Origin: Escherichia phage Mangalitsa
Sequence record: NC_048799.1
Length of the DNA stretch: 52,329 bases
Strand: one strand, 5' to 3'
The position numbers and the translations under genes were made by a program. The notes under the pieces were generated by a model. The model worked only from the letters and a program-made list of their open reading frames with translations. It made no database searches and had not been told where the DNA came from. Positions 132 to 40,910 of the stretch are shown here, one piece after another (the stretch's first letter is position 1; every line of letters begins with the position of its first letter).

Positions 132-150
132 CATTAGTTGGTTGTGATTA
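132..150 (+). promoter_or_regulatory. phage-RNAP-type promoter, variant class (CATTAGTTGGTTGTGATTA), upstream of the RNAP gene
   Basis: Member of a 10-copy motif family with core CATTAGT; closest match is the copy at 26372 upstream of terminase. Confidence 0.5.
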
Positions 151-210
151 TGAATAGGCTACGCAAGTCTAATCCGTTTCAGTTAAATCATAATCAATTG
201 GAGACTTATC

Positions 211-2325
211 ATGACTAACGAAGAATACCGTGCACTGGCTGCTGATGGCGCTCGCTTGAAAGAAGAAGGCCAAGGTTGGAAAGACGTGCTCGATACGATG
301 GACCGTTGCAACCAGATGGTAGATGAAATCACCTCCGCTACACAATCCGAAACTAAAACCGAAACTAAATTGGAGACTCGCAAAATGACAACTATCTCAA
401 CTCAAACTATCAAATCCGTTGTCCCTGCTATCACTGCCCTGGTATACCGTGCTAAAGAGAAACAGAATTACATGCAGCCTCAGACCTGTGCTATTGCTGC
501 TCTTGCAATCTTTAAGATGATGACCTCATTCACTCGTGATGATGTTGTTCCTGCAATGTCAATGGTTGAACTGGCTTCTGCTTCTATTGCTGATGCCAAC
601 CGTTACAACAACGACCTGAAAGCAATGCACTATGTTGACCCGGCTATCAACCTCATTGGTCTGGCTAAACACTTTGGCTTCATCACCATGAACGAAGACA
701 AGTCGTTCCAACAAACTGATGCATGGGTTGAGCTGGTTACTACCAAAGATACCTCAGTTCCATTTACTGAGCGTGTTACCACTGAATCTCGTCGCAAGCC
801 TTTCGTTAAAGGTGGCAAAGTTAAGCCATCCAAGACTCTGAAAGCTGCAATCGAATTCCTGCAAGATACTGAGTACCATGTGGAGACTGAGATGGTTCGC
901 GTCATCCAGTCTATGATTGAACAACGTACCTACGGTGGTTTGCAGGTGCCAGAAGCAATCCAGACTGAACTCCATGTTTGGAACAATGCTGTAGCAATGA
1001 TGACTCAGGACACTCTGTTCTCTGACTACTTTGCTGATAACCGTGGTCGTCTGTATCATGTAGCATGTGCTGGTCCTAACCCACAATCATCTGACTTTGC
1101 TCGTTGCTTGTATTCTCACAATGTTGAGAACATCGTTAAGAAGTTTAACGAAGATGGTTCTACTACCATTGCATACAACATGTTCATGGCAGAGCTGGAA
1201 GATATTTCCGGTGGTGAATGGTGTACTGCTAAGCGTTTAACTTATGTTGCTCAGAATCCAGCTGGTTCACTTGCTCGCATGATGAACATGGACAAATCTG
1301 AACGTCCTTCTAAGCCATTCACTTATGTTCGATTGGCTCTGGATTGGTTCAAGTTTGAGACTACAGGTGAGTGTGATTCTCGAGTAGGCTTTGGCTTAGA
1401 TGCTAAATGTTCTGGTACTCAATATCTGGCATTCATTGCTGGTAACATGGAGATGGCTCGTGCAACAGGTCTGGTTGATTCTGAGACTAAAGCATCTGAC
1501 CCATACCAGTTGAGTCTCCGTGAACTGTTGAAGCTACTGGATAAGTCTTCAATGAAACCATCTCCTGAAATTATGGATGAATTCTTGAATCCGAAAGCTG
1601 GTCGTAAGTTTATCAAAACTCCATACATGGCTATCCAATATGGTGGTGGTAAAGCTGCGTTAACTGGTTCTTCTGACTTTATCTCCTACATGACTGCATC
1701 TCTACAGATTCCAGTTGAGAAAGCAGAAGCATTTGCTGAACTGTGTGTGGAAGCAATCCATAACGCATTGGGTGCTAAGATTAACATGTTCATTGAGAAA
1801 GCTGCTGAAGCTGCATATAACCGTTGTGTTGAACTCAACAAAGAGTACATCACCTATAAGCACACTGATGGCCAAGTTGTAATGAAGCCTTGCTTCCCAT
1901 CTCGTGAAATCTGTGATGCATTCAGCATTCGTGTTGATTCTCAAACTCGTGTTATCTTTGGTCAGATTCAGGAAGAGAAACCTTGGACCATTCGTGAGTC
2001 CAATCCAACTAAGGAAGAATTCAAACGTACCTTCGTTGTTAACTACATTCAAGGTATTGATGCTCTGGTTGCTCGTACTGTTGCAGTTAAGGCTAAAGAA
2101 GCTGGTCTTCGTGGCTTTACTCCAATCCATGATTGTTTCCGTTGCTGTTTGGCTGATGCTCCACGCATGATGGAAGTTATTCGTGCAGCATATGTTGAAA
2201 TCTTTGTAACCAACAATCAATTCGAGAATCTGTCTAAGCAACTTGGTGGCATCAAGATGTATCACGAGAACATCGTAACCGAAGAGCTTCTGATGAGCGA
2301 ACACGCTTACTACTTCTGTCAATAA
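211..2325 (+). CDS. single-subunit DNA-dependent RNA polymerase, T7-like but compact (704 aa)
   Basis: Palm motifs readable in the translation: motif A DAKCSGTQYLA, motif B KFIKTPYMAIQYGGG, motif C IHDCF; RBS GGAGA before the ATG. Confidence 0.85.
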   Translation: MTNEEYRALAADGARLKEEGQGWKDVLDTMDRCNQMVDEITSATQSETKTETKLETRKMTTISTQTIKSVVPAITALVYRAKEKQNYMQPQTCAIAALAIFKMMTSFTRDDVVPAMSMVELASASIADANRYNNDLKAMHYVDPAINLIGLAKHFGFITMNEDKSFQQTDAWVELVTTKDTSVPFTERVTTESRRKPFVKGGKVKPSKTLKAAIEFLQDTEYHVETEMVRVIQSMIEQRTYGGLQVPEAIQTELHVWNNAVAMMTQDTLFSDYFADNRGRLYHVACAGPNPQSSDFARCLYSHNVENIVKKFNEDGSTTIAYNMFMAELEDISGGEWCTAKRLTYVAQNPAGSLARMMNMDKSERPSKPFTYVRLALDWFKFETTGECDSRVGFGLDAKCSGTQYLAFIAGNMEMARATGLVDSETKASDPYQLSLRELLKLLDKSSMKPSPEIMDEFLNPKAGRKFIKTPYMAIQYGGGKAALTGSSDFISYMTASLQIPVEKAEAFAELCVEAIHNALGAKINMFIEKAAEAAYNRCVELNKEYITYKHTDGQVVMKPCFPSREICDAFSIRVDSQTRVIFGQIQEEKPWTIRESNPTKEEFKRTFVVNYIQGIDALVARTVAVKAKEAGLRGFTPIHDCFRCCLADAPRMMEVIRAAYVEIFVTNNQFENLSKQLGGIKMYHENIVTEELLMSEHAYYFCQ

Positions 2326-2367
2326 CATTAATTGGTCAAGGATGACCACAACTACTTGGAGACTACA

Positions 2368-2568
2368 ATGAATACCATGCAAATCAAACAAATCGAAAAC
2401 TGTTTCAATCCTCACCACACTTGCAGCATGACTGATTTATCTCGTCCTACAGTGGAGGAGACTAAAGACTTCTTAGAATTGTTGTCAGAATATAAACAAG
2501 AATCGCATGTATTATTGCATGCATATTTACACAACTCTGGATACTTTGATACAGAGATACCGTTCTGA
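2368..2568 (+). CDS. hypothetical early protein (66 aa) ending in DTEIPF
   Basis: ORF-track frame 2332..2568 begins at TTG; the internal ATG at 2368 has a GGAGA RBS. C-terminus ...SGYFDTEIPF. Confidence 0.45.
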   Translation: MNTMQIKQIENCFNPHHTCSMTDLSRPTVEETKDFLELLSEYKQESHVLLHAYLHNSGYFDTEIPF

Positions 2569-2573
2569 TACTC

Positions 2574-2598
2574 GGGAGCTTCGGCTCCCTTTTCTTGT
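2574..2598 (+). terminator. intrinsic terminator, GGGAGC-UUCG-GCUCCC hairpin plus U-tract
   Basis: Perfect 6-bp GC stem with UUCG tetraloop followed by TTTTCTTGTTT, directly after the RNAP operon. Confidence 0.6.
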
Positions 2599-2620
2599 TT
2601 CAACTAATCTAAAGATGTAG

Positions 2621-2640
2621 CATTAGTTGCATGTGAATAA
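2621..2640 (+). promoter_or_regulatory. phage-RNAP-type promoter CATTAGTTGCATGTGAATAA
   Basis: Identical 20-mer recurs at 3749; family consensus CATTAGTTGR-ATGTGAA. Confidence 0.6.
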
Positions 2641-2660
2641 CAAACAATTTGGAGCATATC

Positions 2661-2825
2661 ATGTTCACAGTACATTACATAAACAAGAACTTATCCGAAG
2701 GTGTTTACAAGTGCGACACACTCAAAGAGGCAAGAGCGTTCGCCAGAAGCTTGAGAGAAGTAATATCTGTTGAAATCACAGATGGCGATAAAGAGTACGA
2801 TGTAGTTAAGCCTGAACTCCACTGA
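2661..2825 (+). CDS. hypothetical small protein (54 aa)
   Basis: ATG 21 nt after the promoter with GGAGCA RBS; below the 60-aa cutoff of the ORF track. Confidence 0.4.
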   Translation: MFTVHYINKNLSEGVYKCDTLKEARAFARSLREVISVEITDGDKEYDVVKPELH

Positions 2826-2838
2826 TTCCCAATATTCA

Positions 2839-2865
2839 GACAATATTGCTGCATGTAATATTGTC
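2839..2865. repeat. inverted repeat GACAATATT-N9-AATATTGTC
   Basis: Perfect 9-bp arms; belongs to the AATATTG..CAATATT family also at 3289, 3538 and the right end. Confidence 0.6.
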
Positions 2866-2876
2866 TCGATATTCGA

Positions 2877-2896
2877 CATTAGTTGGATGTGAAGTA
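2877..2896 (+). promoter_or_regulatory. phage-RNAP-type promoter CATTAGTTGGATGTGAAGTA
   Basis: Motif family member; the prefix GATATTCGACATTAGTTGG is shared with the copy at 10780. Confidence 0.55.
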
Positions 2897-3288
2897 ACAG
2901 AATACGGAGAAGTATTACTCACGTTGTTCGTGGGTTTCCGCATGTCATGTTGAAATCATTCTAGAAACATTTCAGCATGTCAACTAAACATACAGTGTTG
3001 TAATGATGTGGCAATCATTGAACTCCCTGTCTTTGGCCAGACAAAGTTCCAACAACCATGTGTGAAGTAGGATTATTATTCGAAACTGTTCTTCAACTAA
3101 GGCATGTTCACTTGTTTCAATATTGCTTCATCTCCTATTATCAAGGCCCACCCACAAGCCGGGAGATAACTTTGGCAAGACTGGAACTTTTGGACATGCT
3201 TCTTTCTTTCAATCAGAATTCGAAAGAAGAGAAGAGTCGGAGCAAAGTGGCATTACGAATCCCGTAGCCCGCCCCGATTTTGAGCAAC

Positions 3289-3306
3289 AAATATTGTGAC
3301 AATATT
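3289..3306. repeat. inverted-repeat 18-mer AATATTGTGACAATATTG, copy 1
   Basis: Exact duplicate at 3538..3555; imperfect palindrome. Confidence 0.65.
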
Positions 3307-3537
3307 GTCGCAGTATGGCATGTAAATATTGCTACAAATTGGCATGTTAGAATGTGGCAGAATTGTTAGAGGACTAATCACCTCGAAGATACAATTGTCT
3401 ACCAATCCGGCATGTTAATTTTGTAACAGTATTTGTGCCAAATTCGCATGTATTAGCTGTATCAGTATTAACCCAATATTCTTGCAACCCGCATGAATAC
3501 TGGCTTCCAGCCAAGCGAAGGCTTTATCATCGCATGT

Positions 3538-3555
3538 AATATTGTGACAATATTG
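3538..3555. repeat. inverted-repeat 18-mer AATATTGTGACAATATTG, copy 2
   Basis: Exact duplicate of 3289..3306. Confidence 0.65.
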
Positions 3556-3748
3556 GGATAAAACCCTTTATTTAATTAGTTTTATTATGCTGTACATGGT
3601 CGGTTTTCCGTACCTGCTGCGCCACTTCTTGATGTGCCAAATACATTCCAAGATAGGAGCAAACCTGTAATTAATGATGCATGTTTAGTTGTGACAAAAT
3701 TCGTCTATTTGGCAGATGAATTAGTTGCAATTAAGCATGTCCATTTAT

Positions 3749-3768
3749 CATTAGTTGCATGTGAATAA
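3749..3768 (+). promoter_or_regulatory. phage-RNAP-type promoter CATTAGTTGCATGTGAATAA, preceded by a partial copy at 3721..3734
   Basis: Identical to the 2621 copy; tandem partial motif TTAGTTGCAATTAA lies 28 nt upstream. Confidence 0.6.
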
Positions 3769-3869
3769 GACCAAATCTCTGTAAATTCTGCTGAAATTGT
3801 GTGGCAGATTTTAGAGAGATTATGTCTCCAAGCTAATCATTGTAGTTTTCGGCACTTCATGTGTCACAT

Positions 3870-3933
3870 ACTCCCTACAACTTTAAGGTGGATTGAGGTA
3901 AGACAAGACCTCCACAATCGTTCTGTAGGGAGT
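3870..3933 (+). other. structured 5' leader hairpin upstream of gene 3959
   Basis: 10-bp perfect long-range stem ACTCCCTACA / TGTAGGGAGT enclosing an inner GAGGT/ACCTC hairpin; sits between promoter 3749 and the RBS at 3948. Confidence 0.4.
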
Positions 3934-3958
3934 TTTCTTTTAACTTTGGAGAATAAAA

Positions 3959-4207
3959 ATGGATACTGTAATTAAAGCTGCTTGTTTCAAAGACCTGCAA
4001 GATGGTCAAATCTTCACTGTTCGTTCTGTGAAGTGGATTAAAGTAAATGAATCAGATAAGTACAATGCTGTAAAGTTCTTTGATTCAAGTAAGGCATGTA
4101 CTTTTAGCGACAATATTGTTGTCAATATTGAAGTCGAATTAACTCCTGAAGACGAAGATATTGAAGTGGCTCTTCGTAAAACTGCTGGATATAACGAGGG
4201 ATTCTAA
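3959..4207 (+). CDS. hypothetical early protein
   Basis: ORF with GGAGAA RBS; no recognisable motif. Confidence 0.5.
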   Translation: MDTVIKAACFKDLQDGQIFTVRSVKWIKVNESDKYNAVKFFDSSKACTFSDNIVVNIEVELTPEDEDIEVALRKTAGYNEGF

Positions 4208-4444
4208 ATGAATTATGCTTTATATCAATACATTAATCGTGATGGTGTTGTTGCTCACGCCTTAGTCAATACTAAGACAAAAGATGTAATGCTGGCTGAC
4301 ACAGTGATTTACTTCGAAAGAGGAAATCTGGTTTGGAAACCTGCTGCACATCCTGAATACGTTTGGCTTGCAATTCAAAATGACAAACATCACAAAATTG
4401 TAGCAATGGCCACGCACCCTCATTTCATTAAAGCAAGAGGTTAA
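4208..4444 (+). CDS. hypothetical early protein
   Basis: ORF tightly packed against neighbours. Confidence 0.5.
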   Translation: MNYALYQYINRDGVVAHALVNTKTKDVMLADTVIYFERGNLVWKPAAHPEYVWLAIQNDKHHKIVAMATHPHFIKARG

Positions 4445-4445
4445 T

Positions 4446-4634
4446 ATGGACTTCATCGTCTTCTTCAAATTAAATGATGTAGAGCAAAGGTTATACTTCA
4501 ATTCTTTATTTCGTTTACAGGAGTGGGCGGAGAAGTTTGTTGGTTACGACTTTGAATACATCAATGCATGTACAACTGACGAACATGAGGAAATCGTGTT
4601 CAGTTCTTTAAATCAAATTCTGGAGGCCAAATGA
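4446..4634 (+). CDS. hypothetical early protein
   Basis: ORF tightly packed against neighbours. Confidence 0.45.
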   Translation: MDFIVFFKLNDVEQRLYFNSLFRLQEWAEKFVGYDFEYINACTTDEHEEIVFSSLNQILEAK

Positions 4635-4876
4635 GCCAGTTTAAGTTAAAAGCAGATTTAATCGAATTGGCCTCTTATGAAGAGAAGGTCGAATTCATTC
4701 AGGAGCGTCTTGTTGTTAACTATGGTGGTTGGTGGGATATTGCAACAGATGAGCTAGTCACCATTGTTAAGGAAGAATTCGGCATTGAGCTGACCAATAA
4801 GCAATTTCTTGATGATGTTCTCACAGATAAAGTCGTTAAAGAAATTACAACCAATTTCATGACAAGTGTTCAGTAG
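4631..4876 (+). CDS. hypothetical early protein
   Basis: ATGA overlap with the upstream gene. Confidence 0.5.
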   Translation: MSQFKLKADLIELASYEEKVEFIQERLVVNYGGWWDIATDELVTIVKEEFGIELTNKQFLDDVLTDKVVKEITTNFMTSVQ

Positions 4877-4885
4877 GAGTATTAA

Positions 4886-5059
4886 ATGAACGACCAGCAA
4901 TTCAACACATTCATGCAGCAGATTAATCATCAAGAACTGATGGATGCCATCAAAGGCAAGAAGCCAGTCGAACGTCAATATCGTAAAATTGATAATTATA
5001 TGCCAACAATCATTGCATGTGTTGGTGTTGCTATTGTTCTCTACTTCCTGGTGAAATAA
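4886..5059 (+). CDS. hypothetical small membrane protein (57 aa)
   Basis: TAGGAGT RBS; hydrophobic C-terminal segment TIIACVGVAIVLYFLV; below ORF-track cutoff. Confidence 0.4.
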   Translation: MNDQQFNTFMQQINHQELMDAIKGKKPVERQYRKIDNYMPTIIACVGVAIVLYFLVK

Positions 5060-5154
5060 TGGACATTGTTAAGAAATTAGTGTTCTGCATTCTAATGTTC
5101 CCTCTGGTGCTGCTCGTTGTGGGCAGCTTCTTAATCTTTTAATAAGGTAATTCA

Positions 5155-5451
5155 ATGTCAATTCAGAAATTCCTTGATGTAGCAAACGTTGCTAAGAATT
5201 CGATTCCAAGCAATCCCGATATTCTCACCTCAATGCGTGTTGATGTTGCAATTCTGGCTTTGGCTGGTGAGCACATCAATGTACTTGAGAAGCAAGTTTC
5301 AGATTGTAAAAGTGAAATAATCACTTTGCGTGACCAGGTTGCCAGCCAAGAAGCGGCATATTCTGACCTCATGGATGCGAAAAACCATTTGCAACAACGG
5401 CTTGCAGATGCACTTGAAGAAATCGAAAGGTTAACACCTCCAACCAAATAA
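5155..5451 (+). CDS. hypothetical protein, coiled-coil-like
   Basis: ORF; heptad-like charged sequence. Confidence 0.5.
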   Translation: MSIQKFLDVANVAKNSIPSNPDILTSMRVDVAILALAGEHINVLEKQVSDCKSEIITLRDQVASQEAAYSDLMDAKNHLQQRLADALEEIERLTPPTK

Positions 5452-5466
5452 CAATTGGGAGTTATT

Positions 5467-5730
5467 ATGGCTACTAAGACTGGAATGATGATTGTCCCAA
5501 GCCGTAATAACTCTTTAAGCGGCTTTACTCCATATAAAATCTATGAAGTAATTTCTGGCACTGGTGAAGCAAACCTGTCAGAAGTTGCTTTGAAGCTAGG
5601 TAGGATGGTCCACTCCGACATTTCCTGTAACGTAGTTGATGATGAAGGTAAAATCCGTTTTGTAACAATGGATTTCTTTCGTGAATTTAATCTTAAATCT
5701 GAAATCGGTGTTTTATATCATGAAATTTAA
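5467..5730 (+). CDS. hypothetical protein
   Basis: ORF-track frame 5455 begins at TTG; first ATG at 5467. Confidence 0.5.
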   Translation: MATKTGMMIVPSRNNSLSGFTPYKIYEVISGTGEANLSEVALKLGRMVHSDISCNVVDDEGKIRFVTMDFFREFNLKSEIGVLYHEI

Positions 5731-6809: not shown

Positions 6810-6850
6810 ATTAACAAGGGGCATTCATTGAGTGTTCCTGATTAATTCAA

Positions 6851-6870
6851 CATTAGTTGGATGTGAGAGA
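6851..6870 (+). promoter_or_regulatory. phage-RNAP-type promoter CATTAGTTGGATGTGAGAGA
   Basis: Motif family member, 70 nt upstream of the SSB-tail gene. Confidence 0.55.
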
Positions 6871-10381: not shown

Positions 10382-10591
10382 TTCCAGGCGGTTTCTTCGA
10401 AGTGCCAAGCGGGTTTGTTGCTCGCATTGGCCTTCGGCATTCTTCTGGGGCATTAGTGGGATTTGATTCTGACCTCTTAGGGAAGAAAGGCATTATACAC
10501 TTATCGCCAAATAGGTGTCAAGCACTTTCTTCATTTATTTTAATTTATTCTTATTATTCTTTTTGTTTGGAATATTGGAATAATTCTTAAA

Positions 10592-10610
10592 CATTAGTTG
10601 GAATTGAAAT
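10592..10610 (+). promoter_or_regulatory. phage-RNAP-type promoter CATTAGTTGGAATTGAAAT
   Basis: Motif family member, ending 1 nt before the ATG at 10609. Confidence 0.5.
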
Positions 10611-10785
10611 GATTAAAGTCCTGGAAAAAGATAATGTAACCTTCACACGCCAATGCCAGTTGTGTGCCTCTGTTGTGTCTTATGAATTCTCTGACTTAAA
10701 GATGCGCACAGGAAAGAATGACCGAGGATACTTCGCATACAGATTTATTCCTTGTCCTGTTTGTAAGAAAGATATTCGACATTAG
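10609..10785 (+). CDS. hypothetical zinc-ribbon protein (58 aa)
   Basis: CQLC ... CPVC pairs; stop codon lies inside the next promoter motif; below ORF-track cutoff. Confidence 0.45.
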   Translation: MIKVLEKDNVTFTRQCQLCASVVSYEFSDLKMRTGKNDRGYFAYRFIPCPVCKKDIRH

Positions 10786-10799
10786 TTGGAATTGGAGAA
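10780..10799 (+). promoter_or_regulatory. phage-RNAP-type promoter CATTAGTTGGAATTGGAGAA
   Basis: Motif family member; transcription would enter the GC-rich 10800..11434 leader. Confidence 0.5.
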
Positions 10800-12059: not shown

Positions 12060-12734
12060 ATGTCTTATCATGATGACGACAAAGAAATTGCACTTTCTAC
12101 GTGCAAGCAATGGCTCAATGATAATGATGCCGTCTATCTTGCCAAGGAAGATGTTATCATCATGTGGGTCCATTTTAATCCAGAATCTAAACGCGGTGAG
12201 TGGCAACGCTACAAAATGAAAGAGGCTTGCCGAATCATTAAAGCCACTCGCGCTGGCTTCTCTGCGATGAAGTATATCAAACCAGAGATGCTCATGCTTG
12301 CTGCACAAGAAGAAGAACGTGCTTACAAGCAAGCTGTTAAATCTCGCTCAACTGTTCCTCCAGAGTTCTTTAATCTGGAGCGCGCTGGACACTTCAACAA
12401 TTTAGAAATGTTGACATTGTGCATGTTGCAAGAATTAGTTGGAAGAGGAATGAACATTGAAGCTGTTTGCCTTGGGGAACTCATGAAAGAGTTGTTCTTG
12501 ACAAAGGGCTTTGCTGTGCCTAATCGCACGCTTCGTTGGAAACTGCTTCGTGCTGTTGAAGGTGAAGCTGGTGTGATTATCCGTGACCGAACCAACCGCA
12601 TGACTGTAACAGGTGTGGGACGTTTTGTTGCGATTCAAATCGAGGGCATTGACGACTCGATTACAACTGAACTCACTGTCGCCGAGACAAAGGATTTAGT
12701 GATTAAATCAATCGAACGATTCAATATGTATTGA
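12060..12734 (+). CDS. hypothetical protein (224 aa)
   Basis: Long ORF, no recognisable motif. Confidence 0.55.
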   Translation: MSYHDDDKEIALSTCKQWLNDNDAVYLAKEDVIIMWVHFNPESKRGEWQRYKMKEACRIIKATRAGFSAMKYIKPEMLMLAAQEEERAYKQAVKSRSTVPPEFFNLERAGHFNNLEMLTLCMLQELVGRGMNIEAVCLGELMKELFLTKGFAVPNRTLRWKLLRAVEGEAGVIIRDRTNRMTVTGVGRFVAIQIEGIDDSITTELTVAETKDLVIKSIERFNMY

Positions 12735-12764: not shown

Positions 12765-12784
12765 CATTAGTTGAATGTGAAAAG
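12765..12784 (+). promoter_or_regulatory. phage-RNAP-type promoter CATTAGTTGAATGTGAAAAG
   Basis: Motif family member upstream of the acidic protein gene. Confidence 0.55.
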
Positions 12785-13196: not shown

Positions 13197-14041
13197 GTTG
13201 CCAAGGGCAAACTTGAGAAGCTAAGCTAATTCGATCTGGCACGCACTGGAAGATTTCCGGTGCTGCCTTGAACCCATTCCGGCGTGAGTGGGCTTCAATG
13301 AGCATTCTTGTGATTAGAGTTGGGAGGTAGGCCGATGCCCAATCTCGTGGCCCAGACAAGAGTGTTCATTGAAGTTATTTCAATATGGATGTACAGTAGG
13401 ATGAGAAGCTTCTCCGATAAGAGGAGTGAAAGTAGCTGGAAGGACATGCCCACAGAACTGACCGAGACCATTACAGTAGTAGCGATTCACTACCGCGAAA
13501 CAGTATTGAAATTGGCAACGGTTCATGCGGAAGGGCATCAGTGAAATCTACGTTCAGTGCGCGTGGTGAAATGAAGGAGTAGTGTCCTGAGAATTAGCCC
13601 TGTCTGGTTAAATGCCAGAGTCCATATTAAAGTAACTGGAAACTATTCCTGTCAGGTACTCCTATAATGTCTGAAACGGAGTCAGGTCGCACCTGGTAGC
13701 CGAGGCTATTTACCTACAGATGGATACCTGACAGAAGTAGTTTTCTGAGTCTTACGACGGGCCTAAACTGCCTGGAGTTATTGCGACTGTTTTATTCATT
13801 TAAAATAAATGCAAATGATTCTGAAATGCGAGTTGCGGCTTAATTAAATTTGAGTCCTCTCCGTGGTCTTCCAATCCCATGTAACCAAATTTGGCGCATT
13901 GTGGCTTCGAGATGTGATTAATAAATCGGAGCAATAATTAATTTGTATTCTGCGATGCAGGGCAGGCTTAAGTCCCTCAGTGCGCGTAGGGATGTGATAG
14001 AGTACAAACTTAATTATTAACCTAACCTATAGAGAAACATT

Positions 14042-14296: not shown

Positions 14297-14543
14297 GTGA
14301 ATTGCCCTGAGCATGGAAATAAACTGCTCTAACCGATGGTATCTACAAAGGTAGATTAAATCAGGTTGCCTGTTGGTACTTGGGTTCAACACCTGCTTGC
14401 ACTCGCAAAGTAGTGCCTTGTACCTGAGATGAAGTGAGTCGGGACCATCAATCCCACGTTATGTCAAAACACAGTAGGCGACTCACAGATTCTACAAGCC
14501 TCGCAGTTTGGGAAAACCTGCGTTACCAAAACCCACCTCATTC

Positions 14544-14639
14544 GGACGAGTAGCTCAGAAGGTCTGCTCCAGAGCTTAGTCAGGTAGAGCAATCTGTTCG
14601 ACAGATGTGTCGTTGGTTCGAATCCAACCTTGTCCACCA
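14544..14639 (+). tRNA. tRNA-like gene with an expanded D region; candidate anticodon UCG (Arg) if the anticodon loop is GTTCGAC
   Basis: 7-bp acceptor stem GGACGAG/CTTGTCC, canonical T-arm GTTGG-TTCGAAT-CCAAC, discriminator A and encoded CCA; D-arm-like GCTT-AGTCAGGTA-GAGC preceded by about 20 extra nt; 93 nt before CCA. Confidence 0.4.
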
Positions 14640-14669
14640 GCTTTAATAACCCGCAACACTGGAGTCCTT

Positions 14670-15188: not shown

Positions 15189-16085
15189 GTGAACAAGACG
15201 GACGTCTATAACTTCCCACATAAAGTCGAGGGAGTGCGCGACTTTAAATAACGAGACTCTAGCCACTTGTGGTATGGCAGGTGTAATTCCTGCAAGTTGC
15301 TCTGGGCATAACAATTGAAATTGCTGCCTCGCATTGAACGCGAAAAAGTTCAGGTAGTCACTTCCTAGAACAGTGGCCGGGAACAGACCTAGACAAAAGT
15401 GCTTGAGAACGTTAGCTCTGTCTTGCCAGCATTAATGGCACGTTGGCCGCGTAAAGGCCACAGCGTCTGACCAACGTATCGGTCAACCAAATTCAACGGA
15501 TTCGTAGAGTTAATGAAACCTGCACGATGGGATAGGGATGAAGCATCCGAGGCCGACTGTGTAATTGTGAACGCGGAGTTCACCGAATCCACCAAATCAA
15601 TGGGCTAGTGCAAATGTCAGTCACTAGAAGATGTGTTGCAAAACGTCTTCCATGATGTGCAAAGTGTCAGTCACGTGCCCACCACTTTCCTAACAGTTAT
15701 GCCTCTGTTCAAAAGGCTCATGCGAGCGTCTGGCATACCGTAGCGATACGGCTTAGTTGCGCTGATTGTGTTGTGTCGAAAGAAAGTTCAGGCTTTCGTT
15801 TGAGTTCCTCCTCATCTCGAAGTTAGCTGGATTCAAAATCCAGACTATGTTCCTATTCACATGAAATATGCAAGTCGAGGGTTCTTAATATCTGACATAG
15901 GTATTAAGCGGGTTTATACTTTTCCCCGATGGTCCCCATAAACAAGGTTGATTCACTTGGGCGGTTCGAATCAAATTTAATAAGTGTCTTGGCCGCAGTG
16001 GAAACATCATTTAAGCCAATTTATTGTAATGTTCGTAATAGTCCACGTCAGGGCACTTACTTAAATTTTATCTAGAGAGAGAAAC

Positions 16086-20784: not shown

Positions 20785-21056
20785 TGAAAACTGTATACTC
20801 TATTTTCGATATGCAGGAGTTAGAGCATCATATGTTTGCTACTGATTCCGAAGTTCTCGCAAAAGACGCCGTAATGGCGTTTCTTGAAAAGATTAAGGGC
20901 AACGTATTCGCTTCGTCCGACCCACAGTCTCAAGCACTTAACGATGAGACATTTAAAAGCCTCCAATCTTTAATCTCGGCAACGACTTCAATTGAAGAGC
21001 TGTCCGAAGCATTAGTTGGATACGACTTCCGTCTTGCAACATTGCAAGTCGATTAA
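20784..21056 (+). CDS. hypothetical protein
   Basis: ATG overlaps DNAP stop. Confidence 0.5.
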   Translation: MKTVYSIFDMQELEHHMFATDSEVLAKDAVMAFLEKIKGNVFASSDPQSQALNDETFKSLQSLISATTSIEELSEALVGYDFRLATLQVD

Positions 21057-21959: not shown

Positions 21960-21982
21960 GGCTCCTTCGGGAGCCTTTAATT
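21960..21982 (+). terminator. intrinsic terminator, GGCUCC-UUCG-GGAGCC hairpin plus U-rich tract
   Basis: Perfect 6-bp stem with UUCG tetraloop then TTTAATTT. Confidence 0.6.
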
Positions 21983-26151: not shown

Positions 26152-26167
26152 GCGGCACGCATAATAG

Positions 26168-26194
26168 GGAGGCTATCTGGCCTCCTATCTTATT
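26168..26194 (+). terminator. candidate intrinsic terminator
   Basis: GGAGGC / GCCTCC stem with 6-nt loop, followed by TATCTTATT. Confidence 0.4.
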
Positions 26195-26205: not shown

Positions 26206-26391
26206 ATGCGCACAATACAATGTCCCAACTGTCATTATGAAATTGCTGAAGATGATTTCATAACGCAACAATGTCCTATCTGTGATTCATACATGCCGCT
26301 AAACCGCCTATACTTAAAGGCTGATTCTGGTTTGGGCAGCATCATTCGCATTAATCCCGTGCAAACTTTGCCATTAGTGGATTGTGATTAA
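26206..26391 (+). CDS. hypothetical zinc-ribbon protein (61 aa)
   Basis: CPNC ... CPIC pairs. Confidence 0.45.
   Translation: MRTIQCPNCHYEIAEDDFITQQCPICDSYMPLNRLYLKADSGLGSIIRINPVQTLPLVDCD
26372..26390 (+). promoter_or_regulatory. phage-RNAP-type promoter, variant class (CATTAGTGGATTGTGATTA), upstream of terminase
   Basis: 17 of 19 positions identical to the copy at 132; overlaps the end of the zinc-ribbon gene. Confidence 0.5.
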
Positions 26392-34580: not shown

Positions 34581-36029
34581 ATGGCAATTCCAATTTCCGA
34601 CATCATCCAGGTAAACATCGCGGTTAGTCCGAACGCTGTTGCTGTGGAAGGTTTTGGTCCTTTACTCTTTCTCTCTAAAGAGTTTACACCGACTGCTGCT
34701 GAAGTAGTTCCTGTTCGTCAATATACGAGCATGGCTGCGGTGTCTGCTGATTTCCCGTCTGGTGAAATCTACAATGCAGCTTTGGCATGGTATTCTCAGA
34801 AACCTACTCCGAAGTATTTCTTGGTTGGTGCAATCACCCATGAAGACGTAGTTCCTGCAACTGCTGGTACTGTCACTGCTTCTACTGCTGCAAACCTGGA
34901 CGACATTAAAGATGTAACTTCTGGTGTTATCTCCATCAACATCAATGGCGTTGATATGCACACTGACGCTATCAACTTCTCTACCGTAACAGACTTCGCT
35001 GGTGCTGCTGCTACAATGACTGCTGCATTTGTAACTGCTAATATCCCGGCAACCGTCTCTCAGACCACTGGTGTGTTTAAAATCACTACCAACCTGACTG
35101 GTGACACTGCTGTTATCGGTGATGTTTACGGTACTGCTGCAAGTGCTTTCAAGCTGGATGCAAACTCAAGTCCTGTATTTGTCCAGGGCAACGATGAACA
35201 GTCTATCGGCTCTGACTTGTCTGCAATCCTGAACTCCACTTACAACTTCTTCTTCGTTGCGATTGACCGTGAGTATCGTGGTGGCGCTGCTGGTGATAAC
35301 CAGATGACTGTTGCTAAGTGGGCAGAAGCAAACGAGAAAGTATTTGGCTGGGCAGACTCTGACCCTCAGATTCTGGTTGTTGGTGCTGAATCTAGCTTCA
35401 AGCGTGCCAAAGAACAGAACCTCCAGCGTACTTTGCTGGTGTATGATGCGTCTGATAATGGCGACGAATATCCAGAAATCTCTATCCTGGGTCGTGCATC
35501 AACTGTCAACTTCAACGTTGCAAACTCTGCGCTTGTTCTGGCATTCAAACAAGGTCCGGCTATCAAGACTGCTGACCTGTCTCCGAACCAGCTTGCTGCT
35601 CTCGAACGTGTAAATGGTAACGCATTCATCAACGTTGGTGGGAACACTATGTTCTACAACGGCAAGATGGCTGACGGTACTTGGTTCGATACTGTTCAGG
35701 GTGTGTCTTGGTTAACCTCCAAGATTCGCGCGAACGTGTTCAACCTGTTCTACACTTCCACTACCAAGATTCCTTGGACGGACACTGGCGTTGCTCTGGT
35801 CAACCAGCAAGTAACTCTGGCACTGGAACTGGCTGTAACCAATGGCTTAATCGCTCCAGGTTATGACAACGAAGGAACCTTCTACGCAGATGGTTATAAA
35901 GTATTGTCTACCGACTTGGCACTGATGCAGTCGCAGAAAGGTGCTCGAATCTGGGAAGGTACTTCCTTCATTGCAATTGGCTCTGGCGCATTGCAGGGTG
36001 CAGTTATCTCCGGCAACTTCGTTCAGTAA
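34581..36029 (+). CDS. putative contractile tail sheath protein
   Basis: 482-aa ORF directly upstream of a 151-aa tube-sized ORF, chaperone pair and tape measure; highly expressed codon usage. Confidence 0.45.
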   Translation: MAIPISDIIQVNIAVSPNAVAVEGFGPLLFLSKEFTPTAAEVVPVRQYTSMAAVSADFPSGEIYNAALAWYSQKPTPKYFLVGAITHEDVVPATAGTVTASTAANLDDIKDVTSGVISININGVDMHTDAINFSTVTDFAGAAATMTAAFVTANIPATVSQTTGVFKITTNLTGDTAVIGDVYGTAASAFKLDANSSPVFVQGNDEQSIGSDLSAILNSTYNFFFVAIDREYRGGAAGDNQMTVAKWAEANEKVFGWADSDPQILVVGAESSFKRAKEQNLQRTLLVYDASDNGDEYPEISILGRASTVNFNVANSALVLAFKQGPAIKTADLSPNQLAALERVNGNAFINVGGNTMFYNGKMADGTWFDTVQGVSWLTSKIRANVFNLFYTSTTKIPWTDTGVALVNQQVTLALELAVTNGLIAPGYDNEGTFYADGYKVLSTDLALMQSQKGARIWEGTSFIAIGSGALQGAVISGNFVQ

Positions 36030-36040
36030 GGGTGCGATAA

Positions 36041-36496
36041 GTGAAACAATATTCTTTCTATAATACCGACCTCATTATCGACGGTGCTCGTGTAGATGGT
36101 TTTACTTCTGGTAACGCCATCATCACTGCTCGTCGTAACGCACCTCAACACCTGCCAGTGATTGACGCATATGGTAAGTTGGCTGTGGCTACCACGGCTG
36201 ACTTGTCTGGTACTATCACGTTCCCGCTTCTGCAAACCGCAGACTGGAACGAGATTCTGTACAACCGTGCTCAGCTCACTCAAGCAACTGGCTTGTCTGG
36301 CAACAAATCTCTTTGGACTCCGCTCCAGATTCAGATTGTTGACAAGATGGGTGATGTTCTTGTTAACGGTGTTAACGGCGCAATTCTGCAACAGCCCGCT
36401 ATCCAGCGTGGCGTTAGCTTCACGTCTAACGTGTGGGCTATCTTTGTAGAACGTCTTCAGATTAAGACTGGCTCTTATCCTGAAATTGGCGTTTAA
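36041..36496 (+). CDS. putative tail tube protein
   Basis: 151 aa, positional. Confidence 0.45.
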   Translation: MKQYSFYNTDLIIDGARVDGFTSGNAIITARRNAPQHLPVIDAYGKLAVATTADLSGTITFPLLQTADWNEILYNRAQLTQATGLSGNKSLWTPLQIQIVDKMGDVLVNGVNGAILQQPAIQRGVSFTSNVWAIFVERLQIKTGSYPEIGV

Positions 36497-36511
36497 TTAT
36501 TTGGAGTAATC

Positions 36512-36970
36512 ATGGCTTGTGAATTGCTACAACGTGAATTCACAAACTCCAAAGGTGAACCAGTGCTAGTCGTTGTTCGACAACTGTCGGCTTCGGCTGC
36601 ACTGTCTCTTCACGCGGAGTTGGTAAGCAAGATTGGCTCACGGGTATTTCCATTCATCGAAGGCAAATATAACTTCGCTGATATTATCTACCTGATGCAG
36701 CAAGTGGAGCATACCGTATTCACAGAACTATTCAAACGTGTTATCAGTATGCAGTCGTCTAAAGATGGTCAAGAAATCAAACCAGCTTTATATGATATGC
36801 AATTCAACGGCGAATTAATGTTATCTTGCCACGTCTTTGCATTTGTTCTTGAAGCAAACTTCCTTGATTTTTTCAAGCAAGGGCTCGAAATCAACGAACA
36901 GAGACGGTTGGAGGCGGAGGAAGCATCCAAGCTGGCAGAGCAGAAGAATTCGAGTCCGGAGACAGTTTAG
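36512..36970 (+). CDS. tail assembly chaperone (G-like)
   Basis: Immediately upstream of the tape measure gene; contains the slippery site T-TTT-TTC near its 3' end. Confidence 0.55.
   Translation: MACELLQREFTNSKGEPVLVVVRQLSASAALSLHAELVSKIGSRVFPFIEGKYNFADIIYLMQQVEHTVFTELFKRVISMQSSKDGQEIKPALYDMQFNGELMLSCHVFAFVLEANFLDFFKQGLEINEQRRLEAEEASKLAEQKNSSPETV
36868..36874 (+). other. -1 programmed frameshift slippery heptamer T-TTT-TTC
   Basis: Canonical X-XXY-YYZ in the chaperone frame; the -1 frame opens exactly here (stop TGA at 36865..36867) and runs to 37146. Confidence 0.55.
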
Positions 36971-37146
36971 TATCCCTGTTCCCAGACATAAAGTATTTTC
37001 TGCATCGTCCTATTATTGAAGATAGTTCCCTCTGTACTCTTCGTGAGTTGCAAGATGGAACTTATTCTTTAATAGATTTGTTGTTATTCCATGACATTCT
37101 CGATTTGCGTAAGAAACTCGAACCAGTAGAAGAAGACAATGGCTAA
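36874..37146 (+). CDS. -1 frame C-terminal extension of the tail assembly chaperone (GT-like fusion)
   Basis: Open -1 frame of about 90 codons with no start codon of its own, ending at TAA overlapping the tape-measure ATG. Confidence 0.5.
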   Translation, partial: QARARNQRTETVGGGGSIQAGRAEEFESGDSLVSLFPDIKYFLHRPIIEDSSLCTLRELQDGTYSLIDLLLFHDILDLRKKLEPVEEDNG

Positions 37147-40100
37147 TCAAAAAGATTTAATGAAGTTAGGCACTAGCGAGTTAATTGCTCTTGGTGCACA
37201 GAGCGGTCTGACTTTCCATGCTGGTATGAAGAAGTCGCACATGGTTCAACAACTTAGTGCGAGTGCTGCTTCTGGATGGATGGAAACAAATGCAGAATTA
37301 ATGGGTGGAACATTCGAAGATACTGGTGAAGTTTATACAGAATCTTTTGGGGATTCATCCATGATTTCAGACGCTGCTCATGTGGCTCAAATGCTCTCAG
37401 GAGCTGGTTACACAGAAGCGTTTCACAATGCAATGAACGGTCCACAACACCATGTAGAAGCAGTTCATGCATACATGGAAAGGCTCGGTGTCAACACAGA
37501 TGATGTGTGGATGCACATGCCGAAAGCCAATCCAAACTTGCCGCAGGGCAACTTCAATATGCTTAATGCCTATATGCGAGATACTTTGCAAGGGCATCAA
37601 GATATTATGCCGGAAATCCCAGGACATTACACTGGGGATATTATGGCAGAATACTCCACCAACCGTGGAAACATTGCTGACTCTTATAACTACATGGCCC
37701 ACATGTATGTTGACCGTGAGCAATATGCAAGTCATGAATTATACGCAAGAGACATTAGTCGAGTTGCCAAACGTCTGGAACAAGAGTTGCCTTCCTCCTT
37801 TAAGGAGATTGGGTATACCGCTGCCTCTAATGTAGGAAATAAATCGGCCCCACATATTTCATACATGGATGCACTTCCGCAAATTGGCTCTCCATCAATT
37901 GTTGCTGGCATTTCACATCCTCGCCAACCTCTTAATGCGTCTGGCTTACCACTTGGTTCTTATGGCTCTGGCATCAATCCAGAATATTCCCTCACTGCAT
38001 CATTAACTGGTGGCACTGGTTGGAGCGAACCAAGCAAGGCATTATATTCATCTATTAGCGAGGCTGTTAAGTCTGCTGCTAAAGTTTACTCTGGCAAAAC
38101 CGGAATGAACAACACGCGTCATGAAGTATCTGACCGTGACATGATTATGGATTCCGCTACTCGTTATGCTGATTTGGAAGAAGCTCGTAGTGGATATGCC
38201 AACCTTAAGTCAGAGCTTGCTGACGAACCTTCATATTCTGCATCAAGTGTTCGGGCAATTCTCGAAAACACTTATGACAAAATGGATGCTGAACCTATTC
38301 GCATTCCAGAAATGAAGTCTGCGTCACAGAAGATTGTTAAGGATTCACAATCAACTTCTACAGAGTTTACTGCACAACTTGGTGAAGCAACCAACTGGAA
38401 CTCTGCCAGAATGCGTCGTGAAGAACTTGCGATTGCAAACATGGATAGTGCAGGATTCAGGGATGTATCAGACTACGGAACTGGAAAGTCCGAGTCTCCA
38501 ATCAAGTTCCATGACCTTGAGCAAGGTAGTCAAGAGTGGTTAGACTTTCGTAAGCAGTACGACGTAACTGGTTCTACAGTTGGCACGTTCCTTGGTAACA
38601 ACGCATACACCCGACCTTGGGCTGGAATGGTTGACAAACTTGGAATATCCAGAAGTAAAGAGCCAAGCGATTTCACTAAGAAGATGTTCGCTGATGGTCA
38701 CAGAACGGAAGAAGAAGCACGCGCTCGCGTAAGTAAGGAATTTGGATTCAATATTGCTCAAACTGGCGCTATAACAAATGACAACTATCCCGCCTTTATG
38801 TATTCTCCTGACGGCCTTATTGGTGATGACGCCATTTGGGAGCATAAGAATCCGCAAAGGGCTGGTAAGTTTGCTGACCTTCTTAGTGGCGACCATCCAG
38901 ACTACATGGACCAAGTTCAATTTGGTATGCACGTATCTGGTCGTAACCGCGCTCTGTTCTCTCAAACTATCAACAACGAAACCCGTTCGCAATGGATTGA
39001 GAAGGACGAAGGATGGTACGAAAGAAACCGAAATCGTCTTGATTCTGTGCTTGGTCGTCTTGATGCTGGGCGAGAGTTTGTTAGAAACAATCCTTCACTA
39101 GACCGAGAAGAACTTGTCGCTGGTGCTCGTAGTGCAGTGGTGGGTGATGGCATCTGGAAGGATGTTAAGCAACGCTCTAATCGTGGGTTTAGTCCTGCTG
39201 CTGGTACGTCAGAAGACCCATTCATTGGTTCTCGTCCTTCTTTCGACCCAAATCCTGGCGGCACTTCTGACTACAAACCAAACTTTGTTATGCACGAGCA
39301 AAACTTCCCAGCTGTAGTTGGTGATGGAAGTAATGACTCAATGGCCCTTTCTGTTAAGCGTGGTATCTTAGCGGCACAGGAAGAAAACAAACAGAAAGGT
39401 ATCTCTGGTGTAGATGCCGATTTCGATGGCAAACAAGATTCCACTGTTGGTTGGAATCAGGAACGTTTCGATGCAGCAAATGGTGGCGGCAGTGGTGGCG
39501 GCGGTGGTCGAGGATATTTCTCGGCGGGTGGAAACTTTGGCGATGACTTTGGAAAGGCAGGTGGTGCACTTGCTTCTGGCATCGCTGGTGGTAGCTTATC
39601 TTCTGCATCAAACGGTGTGATGCAAGCACTGATGGCAACTCCTGCTGGACGTATGGCGGCAGTTGGTATTGGTGCAATTCAGATTGGTAACGAAGCTGCT
39701 GACTTCATGAATGATTACATTGGTCAATCTCTTGACGCTGGCGTAGCTAATCCAAATGAATACTCTTCCATGTCGCAAGGCTTGGAAATGTTGGGGCTAA
39801 ACTCCCAGCAAGCTAACCGTTTGAATCAAACCACACATAGTGCCTACAACACCATGCTTAACGGCGACCCCAGTGCCGCTGTGAACATTGTTCGTGGCAG
39901 TAGGGGATTGCTCACCATAGGTGATATTCGCTCGACTGGCGGCGACCCCGTGGCCTTAGCTCGCATTATGCAGGAAAGGGGCAAGGAACGTGGCTGGAGT
40001 CAGGCCCGTATCGCTGGTGCTGCCGAGATGGCTGGCCTACAGGGTATGGCGAGAGCATACGACCGCACGGAATACAGCCATGAGCGAGCAGGTTCGGTGG

Positions 40101-40858
40101 TAGAAAGCGGCAGAAACTCTGACTTTGCCGAAGGTATGGCCCAATCAGAAATGTTGCAGGTGGAGCGCGCACAGCTCCTGCCAGGGTATAACGTGCCACA
40201 AAGTGTGTTATCTCATGGTGCTGCACTGTTCGAAGCTGGAAGCACTGCTGCTGGTGCTGCTAACTCTGGATACAGCCAAGCCCGACAAGTTGCTGCAAAC
40301 GTTTATGATTTTATTGCTGGTGAAGAGTCTGGTGGCAGGGAATACAACAAGGATGGTACACGAGTTACAAGCCCAACTGGTGCTCGTGGAATCATGCAGG
40401 TTCTTCCTTCTACTGCTCGTGACCCAGGTTATGGAATCAAACCTTCTGATGGAAGTCCTGAAGATGATGCTCGTGTTGGTCGTGAATACTACGATGCGAT
40501 GTACAAACGATTCGGTGGCGACCATGAGAAAGCAATGGCTGCTTACACGGATGGTGCTGGAACTGTTGACAAGGCTGTCGATAAGTTTGGAATGGATTGG
40601 CTCAGTGCTGTTCCGGCTCAGGCTCAGAAGCGAGTTAAAGCGTATCGTGATTGGGCTAAGTCTTCCGAAGGCTTGGATGAAGGTGCGACTGGATTCACAC
40701 GGAATGGTATCTCCTATGGTCAAGCTCAAACCACTGTTAACGTGAAGATTGATGCGAAGGTTAATAACCAAACTGCATCTGCCACTGTAGCTGTTCCTGG
40801 CGGTCAGACTGTGACTCAGCAAATGAACATGCACAATGGTGCGCAACAAAGAAGATAA
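37139..40858 (+). CDS. tail tape measure protein with C-terminal soluble lytic transglycosylase domain
   Basis: 1239 aa; Gly-rich segments; transglycosylase signature GEESGGREYN...GARGIMQVLPSTARDPGYG. Confidence 0.75.
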   Translation: MANQKDLMKLGTSELIALGAQSGLTFHAGMKKSHMVQQLSASAASGWMETNAELMGGTFEDTGEVYTESFGDSSMISDAAHVAQMLSGAGYTEAFHNAMNGPQHHVEAVHAYMERLGVNTDDVWMHMPKANPNLPQGNFNMLNAYMRDTLQGHQDIMPEIPGHYTGDIMAEYSTNRGNIADSYNYMAHMYVDREQYASHELYARDISRVAKRLEQELPSSFKEIGYTAASNVGNKSAPHISYMDALPQIGSPSIVAGISHPRQPLNASGLPLGSYGSGINPEYSLTASLTGGTGWSEPSKALYSSISEAVKSAAKVYSGKTGMNNTRHEVSDRDMIMDSATRYADLEEARSGYANLKSELADEPSYSASSVRAILENTYDKMDAEPIRIPEMKSASQKIVKDSQSTSTEFTAQLGEATNWNSARMRREELAIANMDSAGFRDVSDYGTGKSESPIKFHDLEQGSQEWLDFRKQYDVTGSTVGTFLGNNAYTRPWAGMVDKLGISRSKEPSDFTKKMFADGHRTEEEARARVSKEFGFNIAQTGAITNDNYPAFMYSPDGLIGDDAIWEHKNPQRAGKFADLLSGDHPDYMDQVQFGMHVSGRNRALFSQTINNETRSQWIEKDEGWYERNRNRLDSVLGRLDAGREFVRNNPSLDREELVAGARSAVVGDGIWKDVKQRSNRGFSPAAGTSEDPFIGSRPSFDPNPGGTSDYKPNFVMHEQNFPAVVGDGSNDSMALSVKRGILAAQEENKQKGISGVDADFDGKQDSTVGWNQERFDAANGGGSGGGGGRGYFSAGGNFGDDFGKAGGALASGIAGGSLSSASNGVMQALMATPAGRMAAVGIGAIQIGNEAADFMNDYIGQSLDAGVANPNEYSSMSQGLEMLGLNSQQANRLNQTTHSAYNTMLNGDPSAAVNIVRGSRGLLTIGDIRSTGGDPVALARIMQERGKERGWSQARIAGAAEMAGLQGMARAYDRTEYSHERAGSVVESGRNSDFAEGMAQSEMLQVERAQLLPGYNVPQSVLSHGAALFEAGSTAAGAANSGYSQARQVAANVYDFIAGEESGGREYNKDGTRVTSPTGARGIMQVLPSTARDPGYGIKPSDGSPEDDARVGREYYDAMYKRFGGDHEKAMAAYTDGAGTVDKAVDKFGMDWLSAVPAQAQKRVKAYRDWAKSSEGLDEGATGFTRNGISYGQAQTTVNVKIDAKVNNQTASATVAVPGGQTVTQQMNMHNGAQQRR

Positions 40859-40863
40859 GGAGT

Positions 40864-40890
40864 TGGGGAGAAATCCCCAGCTTTCCTTTA
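40864..40890 (+). terminator. candidate intrinsic terminator
   Basis: TGGGGA-GAAA-TCCCCA hairpin followed by GCTTTCCTTTA. Confidence 0.5.
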
Positions 40891-40910
40891 CATTAGTTGA
40901 ACGTGTATTA
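40891..40910 (+). promoter_or_regulatory. phage-RNAP-type promoter CATTAGTTGAACGTGTATTA
   Basis: Motif family member after the tape-measure terminator, upstream of the baseplate genes. Confidence 0.5.

Follow-up and report, generated by a model that had tools for sequence, protein, structure and literature searches.

A repeated coding-strand motif of Escherichia phage Mangalitsa as a candidate promoter family for the T7-fold RNA polymerase of the phage

The genome of Escherichia phage Mangalitsa (NC_048799.1), a myophage of the chasevirus group, analyzed here as a single window of 52,329 nucleotides (nt), contains a repeated motif of the form CATTAGTTG…GTGA, which is a real family, and to which an eleventh copy at position 10451 belongs in addition to the ten listed in a preliminary description of the same sequence. 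The best reading of these eleven sites, all on the plus strand, is that they are promoters for the single-subunit, T7-fold RNA polymerase (RNAP) encoded by the phage itself, to which we would assign a probability of about 0.8. This reading, already proposed in the preliminary description, is reached by inference from the strand, the position and the conservation of the motif, from its layout directly after terminators, from the presence of a T7-fold RNAP gene, and from the failure of readings as sigma-70 or hairpin promoters. The motif as such is already known: the analysis re-derives, in a close relative, the 2008 annotation of phage phiEcoM-GJ1 (GJ1). What is added here consists of three or four extra sites, the conservation of the motif across genera, the copy that is kept ahead of the RNAP gene in these phages, and where the host and phage promoters lie relative to the terminal repeat.

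The motif family

All ten sites of the preliminary description read CATTAGT(T/G)G with a TG further downstream, and all are on the plus strand. The literal core given for them, CATTAGTTG-N-WDKTG, is too strict for two, as the copy at 26372 has TGG in place of TTG and the copy at 40891 reads AACGTG. At the level of counts, CATTAGT is found 16 times in the window versus 7.9 expected, a number that no shuffled sequence reaches, and CATTAGTKGNWNKTG with at most one mismatch has 12 matches, every one on the plus strand, versus 0.78 expected, with no shuffle reaching 12. The check that had been proposed, a scan with a position weight matrix made from these ten, returns them with scores of 26.8–36.3 bits; the next-best scores on the plus strand are 16.9 (10451) and 13.0, and the best on the minus strand is 13.8. 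The site at 10451 (CATTAGTGGGATTTGAT), which had been overlooked, corresponds to promoter 4 of GJ1, has a single variable motif position (in phage TH53) among seven close relatives, and lies inside a doubtful open reading frame (ORF) with a TTG start that is unannotated in GJ1.

The positions of the motif are numbered here on a 17-mer of which the last base is -1, which is a convention and not a mapped start. On this numbering, 34 sites from five genera give the consensus TT-N3-CATTAGTTG-RAW-GTGAW, of about 22 bp, in which T-15, T-14, A-13, G-9, T-4 and G-3 are invariant.

Of the ten listed sites, all but one lie entirely between genes, the exception being 26372, which runs over the final six codons of a 61-aa ORF (26206–26391), and since the published genome description gives Mangalitsa a coding density of 89.7%, this placement is far from random. 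Several copies are found directly 3′ of terminator hairpins and 5′ of gene blocks (Table 1), and the distance to the next start codon ranges from 17 to about 300 nt. Two further plus-strand look-alikes, at 12433 and 21010, are intragenic; because the invariant T-4 is missing from both, they are probably non-functional coincidences of coding, in which the peptide A-L-V-G is encoded.

Other promoter classes were also considered. Taking TTGNNN as a -35 element, or ATTAGT, TTAGTT or TAGTTG as a -10 element, no consistent partner hexamer appears at a spacing of 16–18 bp, and sigma-70-like sites are not above shuffled-sequence frequency genome-wide. Hairpin promoters of the N4 type do not fit either, since in terms of energy the motif folds no better than shuffled sequences do.

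The GenBank entry of the type phage GJ1 (EF460875; Jamalludeen et al., 2008) contains nine “putative phage promoter” features and one “putative host sigma70 promoter”. The nine annotated 20-mers are the same motif (for example, CGACATTAGTTGGATGTGAA), and the Mangalitsa copies, with the same consensus and corresponding positions, fall within this set: GJ1 promoters 1, 2, 3, 4, 7 and 9 correspond to copies of the window, promoter 5 to the pair at 10592 and 10780, and promoters 6 and 8 to the two look-alikes. Counterparts of the copies at 132, 2621 and 26372 also exist in GJ1, where they are unannotated. The GJ1 and Mangalitsa lists are alike in being predictions. For PP101, a chasevirus of another genus, eight consensus phage-RNAP promoters were hypothesized from PHIRE repeats (Lukianova et al., 2020, PMC6989608); the sequence of these promoters appears in a figure alone, and not in the supplements, so that identity with the Mangalitsa motif is presumed. 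The GJ1 annotation and the PP101 study had each come independently to a reading as promoters of the phage. The 2022 ICTV profile describes chasevirus promoters as “not yet identified”.

The phage polymerase

As judged from a structural model, the product of the first long gene is a single-subunit RNAP of the T7 fold. A plain sequence search against the PDB found no relative; the AlphaFold model (confidence score pLDDT 91.8, from an alignment of 51 sequences) has T7 RNAP structures as its best PDB matches (E 2.8e-19, TM-score 0.60, 14% identity). The beta-strands at residues 506–537 of the model, between a motif-B-like helix (R407, K411, Y414) and a motif-C-like HDCF (582–585), would correspond to the position of the T7 specificity loop, a placement that follows from topology and not from superposition. 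Among the myoviruses, a T7-type RNA polymerase is, to our knowledge, confined to the chaseviruses.

The ORF begins with an in-frame extension of 58 codons (211–384) ahead of the start used by most relatives (385), and those relatives align from about residues 62–68. The extension is common to phages JL1, Bp10 and SKA49, is absent in GJ1, and in 4HA13 its place is taken by a separate small gene; the ribosome-binding sequence TTGGAGACT is duplicated, before 211 and before 385.

Promoters of the T7 group (T7 class II/III, T3, SP6, K11) are about 23 bp long and are read by single-subunit RNAPs. Mangalitsa resembles this group in that it encodes a T7-fold RNAP, in that a motif of about 20 bp is repeated on the coding strand, between genes or after terminators and ahead of gene blocks, and in that the motif is common to phages with related RNAPs and is replaced where the RNAP is distant, this last being a pattern compatible with other lineage-specific signals as well. 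T7 likewise has a phage promoter (phiOL) near its left end, upstream of gene 1. Unlike the T7 group, the Mangalitsa motif has neither a conserved initiating GGG nor a TATA-like segment from -4 to -1, and unlike in T7 a terminal repeat of about 3.2 kb encloses the RNAP gene. The motif would be one that works like a T7-type promoter, yet stands outside the T7 sequence family: it has no significant similarity to the 23-bp consensus of T7, T3, SP6 and K11 with its CACTATAG-type core, and 36% of shuffled sequences match SP6 equally well. The resemblance of TTAG.TG to SP6 is a lead only.

Conservation among chaseviruses

The closest records to the window are Carltongylesvirus phages (Chaseviridae), with about 88–90% DNA identity; among them, TH53 (MT446419) is about 90% identical. 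The comparison covered 4HA13 (Sabourvirus), Y2 (Loessnervirus), PP101 (Suwonvirus) and Myduc (Myducvirus), together with GJ1, PYps23T, TH53, TH25, TH24, TH23 and JL1 (Carltongylesvirus and close relatives). Iterated matrix scans of seven complete genomes, the window included, gave 9–11 plus-strand sites in each and at most one weak match on the minus strand. Four sites recur at corresponding positions in all seven, which represent five genera of the Cleopatravirinae: one ahead of the RNAP gene and one just behind it, one upstream of the single-stranded DNA-binding protein gene (ssb), and one at the place of 12765. A copy upstream of the baseplate genes is present in six of the seven, none having been found in Myduc. 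In PP101 the scan gave CATTAGT(T/A)G..GTGA at 356, 2471, 7103, 12143, 14253 and 42396, plus weaker sites.

Among seven close relatives, 83% of the columns are invariant within the motif versus 57% in its flanks, and mosaic breakpoints coincide with the edges of the motif at 2877, 10592 and 10780. The pair at 10592 and 10780 brackets an inserted 58-aa ORF (10609–10785); here the relatives have a single copy of the motif (GJ1 promoter 5), with homology ending right after it. The copy at 2621 has a weaker equivalent in GJ1, at 2640, which is unannotated there.

Five genera with RNAPs that are 66–97% identical retain the motif. In the sister subfamily, among the Nefertitivirinae examined (VPs20 and pAh6-C, with RNAPs 33–36% identical) the CATTAGTTG motif was not found; Vibrio phage VPs20 (NC_079185) has in its first 30 kb a different motif, CTCGCCCRCTARAA, five times on the plus strand versus 0.46 expected, at 2318, 2473, 3555, 5107 and 20997, two of these copies standing just after the RNAP gene. 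This motif came from a repeat search; a de novo search of k-mers gave mostly coding repeats. In Aeromonas phage pAh6-C neither the VPs20 motif nor a clear motif of its own was found. This switching of the motif with the RNAP lineage fits a promoter that changes with its polymerase, although the like would be expected of any lineage-specific signal. As a separate observation, the VPs20 motif, in the extended form (GGGCTCG-N3-5-)CTCGCCCRCTARAA, is a candidate promoter motif for the Nefertitivirinae polymerase.

The preliminary description had also supposed that the polymerase regulates its own gene positively. The part of this idea that can be read from the genomes stands, in that the RNAP gene is preceded by a copy of the motif in each of the Cleopatravirinae genomes examined; self-transcription itself is plausible. 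The copy at 132 has an identical counterpart in JL1. In Y2, PP101 and Myduc the copy lies downstream of a conserved GGCTACGC block, and no more than a decayed remnant is found at the Carltongylesvirus position. This turnover, by which the copy occupies a different place in these three phages, suggests that selection maintains a copy ahead of the gene.

The terminal repeat

The records of Y2 and JL1 carry both copies of the terminal repeat and place its start (..CCTAT/CGGAC/TTAA..) at about position 1 of the window and its end near 3237. The published repeat of Mangalitsa is 3,234 bp long (PhageTerm), the PhageTerm start of 4HA13 is at the same place and agrees with the Y2 and JL1 boundaries, and the repeat of Myduc (PhageTerm, 3,202 bp) begins with a related sequence. 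By the boundaries taken from Y2 and JL1, the copy at 132 (P132), about 135 nt from the predicted left genome end, and the RNAP gene are inside the repeat, and the predicted sigma-70 cluster at 52190–52279 is just outside it. Therefore, in the virion, this cluster would stand ahead of the right-hand RNAP gene alone, and for this reason the transcription of the gene from P132 by its own product would be a reasonable model.

In positions 1–130 and at the left ends of Y2, JL1, 4HA13 and Myduc, two features stand out: (T)CGGAC is present at both repeat boundaries of JL1, and CCTATCGG recurs close to the left end; it is possible that these are the recognition or cutting sequence of the terminase.

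In PYps23T (NC_079178), both ends of the experimentally assigned repeat of 2,339 bp fall within motif copies, at 2329–2345 and 52520–52536, and in the same register (..ATTAGTTGGA^CGTGAA.. and ..ATTAGTTGGA^TGTGAA.., with ^ marking the end). This may be either an artefact of the method, the junction falling within 10 shared bases, or a real difference. In all these phages, the RNAP gene and its own motif copy are within the repeat, and the host-type promoters are just beyond it, ahead of the right-hand copy only. That motif copies, besides their promoter role, have a part in the formation or recombination of genome ends seems to us unlikely. If this were so, transcription by the phage RNAP from P132 and from the copy at 2877 (P2877) would be coupled to the duplication of the repeat or to the processing of concatemers, and the left-hand RNAP gene could be expressed only by self-transcription.

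Alternative explanations

Several points weigh against reading the motif as the promoter of the phage RNAP. On the side of the enzyme: (i) it is about 240 aa shorter than T7 RNAP, on the N-terminal side; (ii) the AT-rich recognition loop and the intercalating hairpin could not be placed in its model; (iii) with its N-terminal region so shortened, a helper factor might be needed. On the side of the DNA: (iv) the motif has no conserved G at +1, and the start site cannot be placed; (v) its similarity to the T7, T3, SP6 and K11 consensus sequences is not significant, the best being 11 of 23 ungapped positions with SP6 (p about 0.36 versus shuffles); (vi) no copy stands ahead of the 10-kb replication module; and (vii) signals at the RNA level and factor-binding sites would likewise show strand bias and an intergenic position. 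Finally, for no chasevirus did the literature searched yield transcript 5′ ends, or results of in vitro transcription or of binding experiments.

Among the alternatives, the one that survives best is that the motif is the binding site of a phage factor, either an activator or a sigma factor or appropriator like MotA/AsiA of T4, that redirects the host RNAP. The same strand, position and pattern of conservation would be expected from such sites, and the much reduced N-terminal region of the phage RNAP and the lack of likeness between the motif and the T7-group promoters would also be accommodated. However, no -10-like element is found at a fixed distance from the motif, which is moreover lost together with the RNAP lineage in the Nefertitivirinae, and a complete T7-fold RNAP needs promoters of its own, for which a search of the genome found no other repeated motif of comparable kind. 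We consider this explanation improbable.

A second possibility is that the motif acts in the RNA, as a processing site or translational operator of polycistronic transcripts, in keeping with its constant location on the transcribed strand and between genes. Such a role appears very unlikely, in that the motif forms no secondary structure (folding z-scores of -0.9 to +1.4 versus shuffled sequences), and because it does not fold it is not a structured RNA, nor is it a hairpin promoter of the N4 type. The copies at 40891 and 2621 are located directly downstream of terminators, little upstream RNA is to be expected at P132, so close to the genome end, and the distance to the next start codon varies widely, as given above.

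Alternatively, the motif could be an element of recombination or of genome ends, marking the boundaries of modules or the junctions of the terminal repeat, and not a transcription signal. The repeat of PYps23T, both ends of which share the register ATTAGTTGGA^NGTGAA, and the mosaic breakpoints at motif copies would favor this idea; but the repeat ends of Y2 and JL1 are not at the motif, the right end lying in unrelated sequence (..GTC^GGAC.. in JL1), the PhageTerm starts of 4HA13, Mangalitsa and Myduc are elsewhere as well, eleven cutting sites per genome would be lethal, and breakpoints at promoters are to be expected of any short conserved sequence. With this balance, we regard it as highly improbable. 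Lastly, that the sites are ordinary sigma-70 host promoters is scarcely credible, for although a passable -10 hexamer lies downstream of TTGGAA or TTGAAT at two of the eleven sites (10780 and 12765), the remaining nine have no partner hexamer above background, and the core CATTAGTTG..GTGA is unlike -35 and -10 elements and looks quite different from the cluster at 52190–52279.

A model of transcription

If the motif is indeed the promoter of the phage RNAP, a series of events can be envisaged, in which the motif with its strand, positions and conservation and the fold of the polymerase are shown by the analysis, and we infer the binding of the enzyme, the start site, the boundaries of the units and the autoregulation. 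The host RNAP would start at the sigma-70 cluster, leading to the synthesis of the phage RNAP, which would then bind the motif as a duplex and initiate near its GTGA(A) end. The resulting units would be co-directional and bounded by hairpin terminators (T, with the coordinate of their start). From P132, transcription would cover the RNAP gene as far as T2574; from P2621, P2877, P3749, P6851, the group P10451/P10592/P10780, and P12765, the early and middle genes and, by read-through, those for replication as far as T21960 and T26167; from P26372, the terminase, head and tail genes as far as T40859; and from P40891, the baseplate, fibre and lysis genes as far as T51931. Through the copy upstream of its gene, the enzyme would transcribe that gene itself.

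That no copy precedes the replication genes (16–26 kb), as pointed out in the preliminary description, is confirmed, the sole look-alike there being the intragenic one at 21010, without the invariant TG. Transcription of this module probably relies on read-through from P12765 or on an unrecognized signal.

Genome layout and other features

The long ORFs of the window are all on the plus strand, in the order single-subunit RNAP, small early genes, replication block, terminase, head, contractile tail and lysis. The features on which the model is built are collected in Table 1.

Table 1. Motif copies, look-alikes, RNAP gene, terminators and predicted host promoters in the Mangalitsa window
Feature	Position	Strand	Sequence	Context	GJ1 counterpart
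Motif copy	132..148	+	CATTAGTTGGTTGTGAT	Upstream of RNAP gene, 79 nt before ATG at 211	
Motif copy	2621..2637	+	CATTAGTTGCATGTGAA	40 nt before 54-aa ORF (2661–2825)	
Motif copy	2877..2893	+	CATTAGTTGGATGTGAA		Putative phage promoter 1
Motif copy	3749..3765	+	CATTAGTTGCATGTGAA	210 nt before early gene block (start 3959)	Promoter 2
Motif copy	6851..6867	+		88 nt before single-stranded DNA-binding protein gene (6939)	Promoter 3
Probable eleventh copy	10451..10467	+	CATTAGTGGGATTTGAT		Promoter 4
Motif copy	10592..10608	+	CATTAGTTGGAATTGAA	Upstream member of duplicated pair	Promoter 5
Motif copy	10780..10796	+	CATTAGTTGGAATTGGA	Downstream member of duplicated pair	Promoter 5
Motif copy	12765..12781	+		93 nt before gene 12858; last copy ahead of replication module	Promoter 7
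Motif copy	26372..26388	+	CATTAGTGGATTGTGAT	39 nt before large terminase ATG (26411)	
Motif copy	40891..40907	+	CATTAGTTGAACGTGTA	40 nt before baseplate and tail-fibre block (40931)	Promoter 9
Intragenic look-alike	12433..12449	+	AATTAGTTGGAAGAGGA	Without T-4	Promoter 6
Intragenic look-alike	21010..21026	+	CATTAGTTGGATACGAC	Encodes E-A-L-V-G-Y-D; without T-4	Promoter 8
Single-subunit RNAP gene	211..2325	+		704-aa ORF; PF00940, E 1.5e-18	
Terminator-like hairpin	2574..2589	+	GGGAGCTTCGGCTCCC + T-run	After RNAP operon; 32 nt before motif copy 2621	
Terminator-like hairpin	21960..21975	+		Inside replication module; position matches terminator annotated in 4HA13	
Terminator-like hairpin	26167..26186	+		End of replication and nucleotide-metabolism block	
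Terminator hairpin	40859..40884	+		Directly after tape-measure gene; 7 nt before motif copy 40891	
Terminator-like hairpin	51931..51946	+		After last late-block ORF (50780–51880)	
Sigma-70-type promoter cluster (predicted, host RNAP)	52190..52279	+		Just upstream of terminal-repeat boundary	Putative host sigma70 promoter (best site)

The hairpin at 2574 also precedes the post-RNAP copy in 4HA13 and PYps23T, and the one that follows the tape-measure gene keeps its position in other genera with a different stem sequence, the motif always being within a few bases downstream. The large terminase, ahead of which the copy at 26372 stands, was assigned by PF17289. The best predicted sigma-70 site is TTAACG-18-TATTAT (52250–52279); no sigma-70-like site was found on the plus strand of positions 1–2341.

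According to the preliminary description, the copies at 132 and 26372 would form a distinct variant class, one before the RNAP gene and the other before the terminase operon. The comparison does not bear this out. At the RNAP-upstream site, the TTGTGATTA that they share persists in no more than a sub-clade (JL1), the same site reading GGA(A/C)GTGAATTG in GJ1, TH53, TH24 and PYps23T; ahead of the terminase gene, 4HA13 has a degenerate copy and Y2 and PP101 have none, and the sequence at 26372 is also constrained by the ORF end that it overlaps. Other occurrences of TGTGATTA share no context. A better-conserved sub-type is CATTAGTTGCATGTGAATRA, found at 2621 and 3749 and also in GJ1, PYps23T and Y2. 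Nor does the half-site described at 13984 hold, having only GGATGTGA in common with the motif, which is at chance level (three occurrences outside the motif copies versus about 0.9 expected per strand); the identification of the gene that follows it as a superinfection immunity gene was correct (PF14373, E 1.4e-17).

The copy at 2877 reads into a conserved region of about 0.9 kb in which the leader GTAACAGAATACGGAGAAGTATT is kept across genera, and which, being conserved in all six frames, is not protein-coding. The stretch 2505–3762 (1.26 kb) has no conserved ORF and is conserved to other genera in all six frames; it extends across the right end of the terminal repeat, with the motif copies at 2621, 2877 and 3749 bracketing it. 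It holds 15 of the 26 plus-strand GCATGT hexamers of the genome and at least eight copies of the palindrome AATATTGTGACAATATT, and may be a replication origin or a regulatory array. Units of AATATTGCTACAATATT, similar to these repeats, adjoin the sigma-70 cluster (about 51999 and 52184). Two structured-looking non-coding stretches of about 850–900 nt (13200–14040 and 15190–16085) are situated after the early genes and before the replication module. The annotation of GJ1 has a tRNA-Arg “with possible intron” near the equivalent of 14540–14640; ARAGORN and Rfam gave no tRNA and no RNA family in the window.

Implications

The short list of conserved sites presented here constitutes a directly testable promoter candidate. 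If the reading as promoters of the phage RNAP is true, chaseviruses would possess a new orthogonal pair of polymerase and promoter, and the sites would provide a transcription map for phages that are used against E. coli, Erwinia and Pectobacterium.

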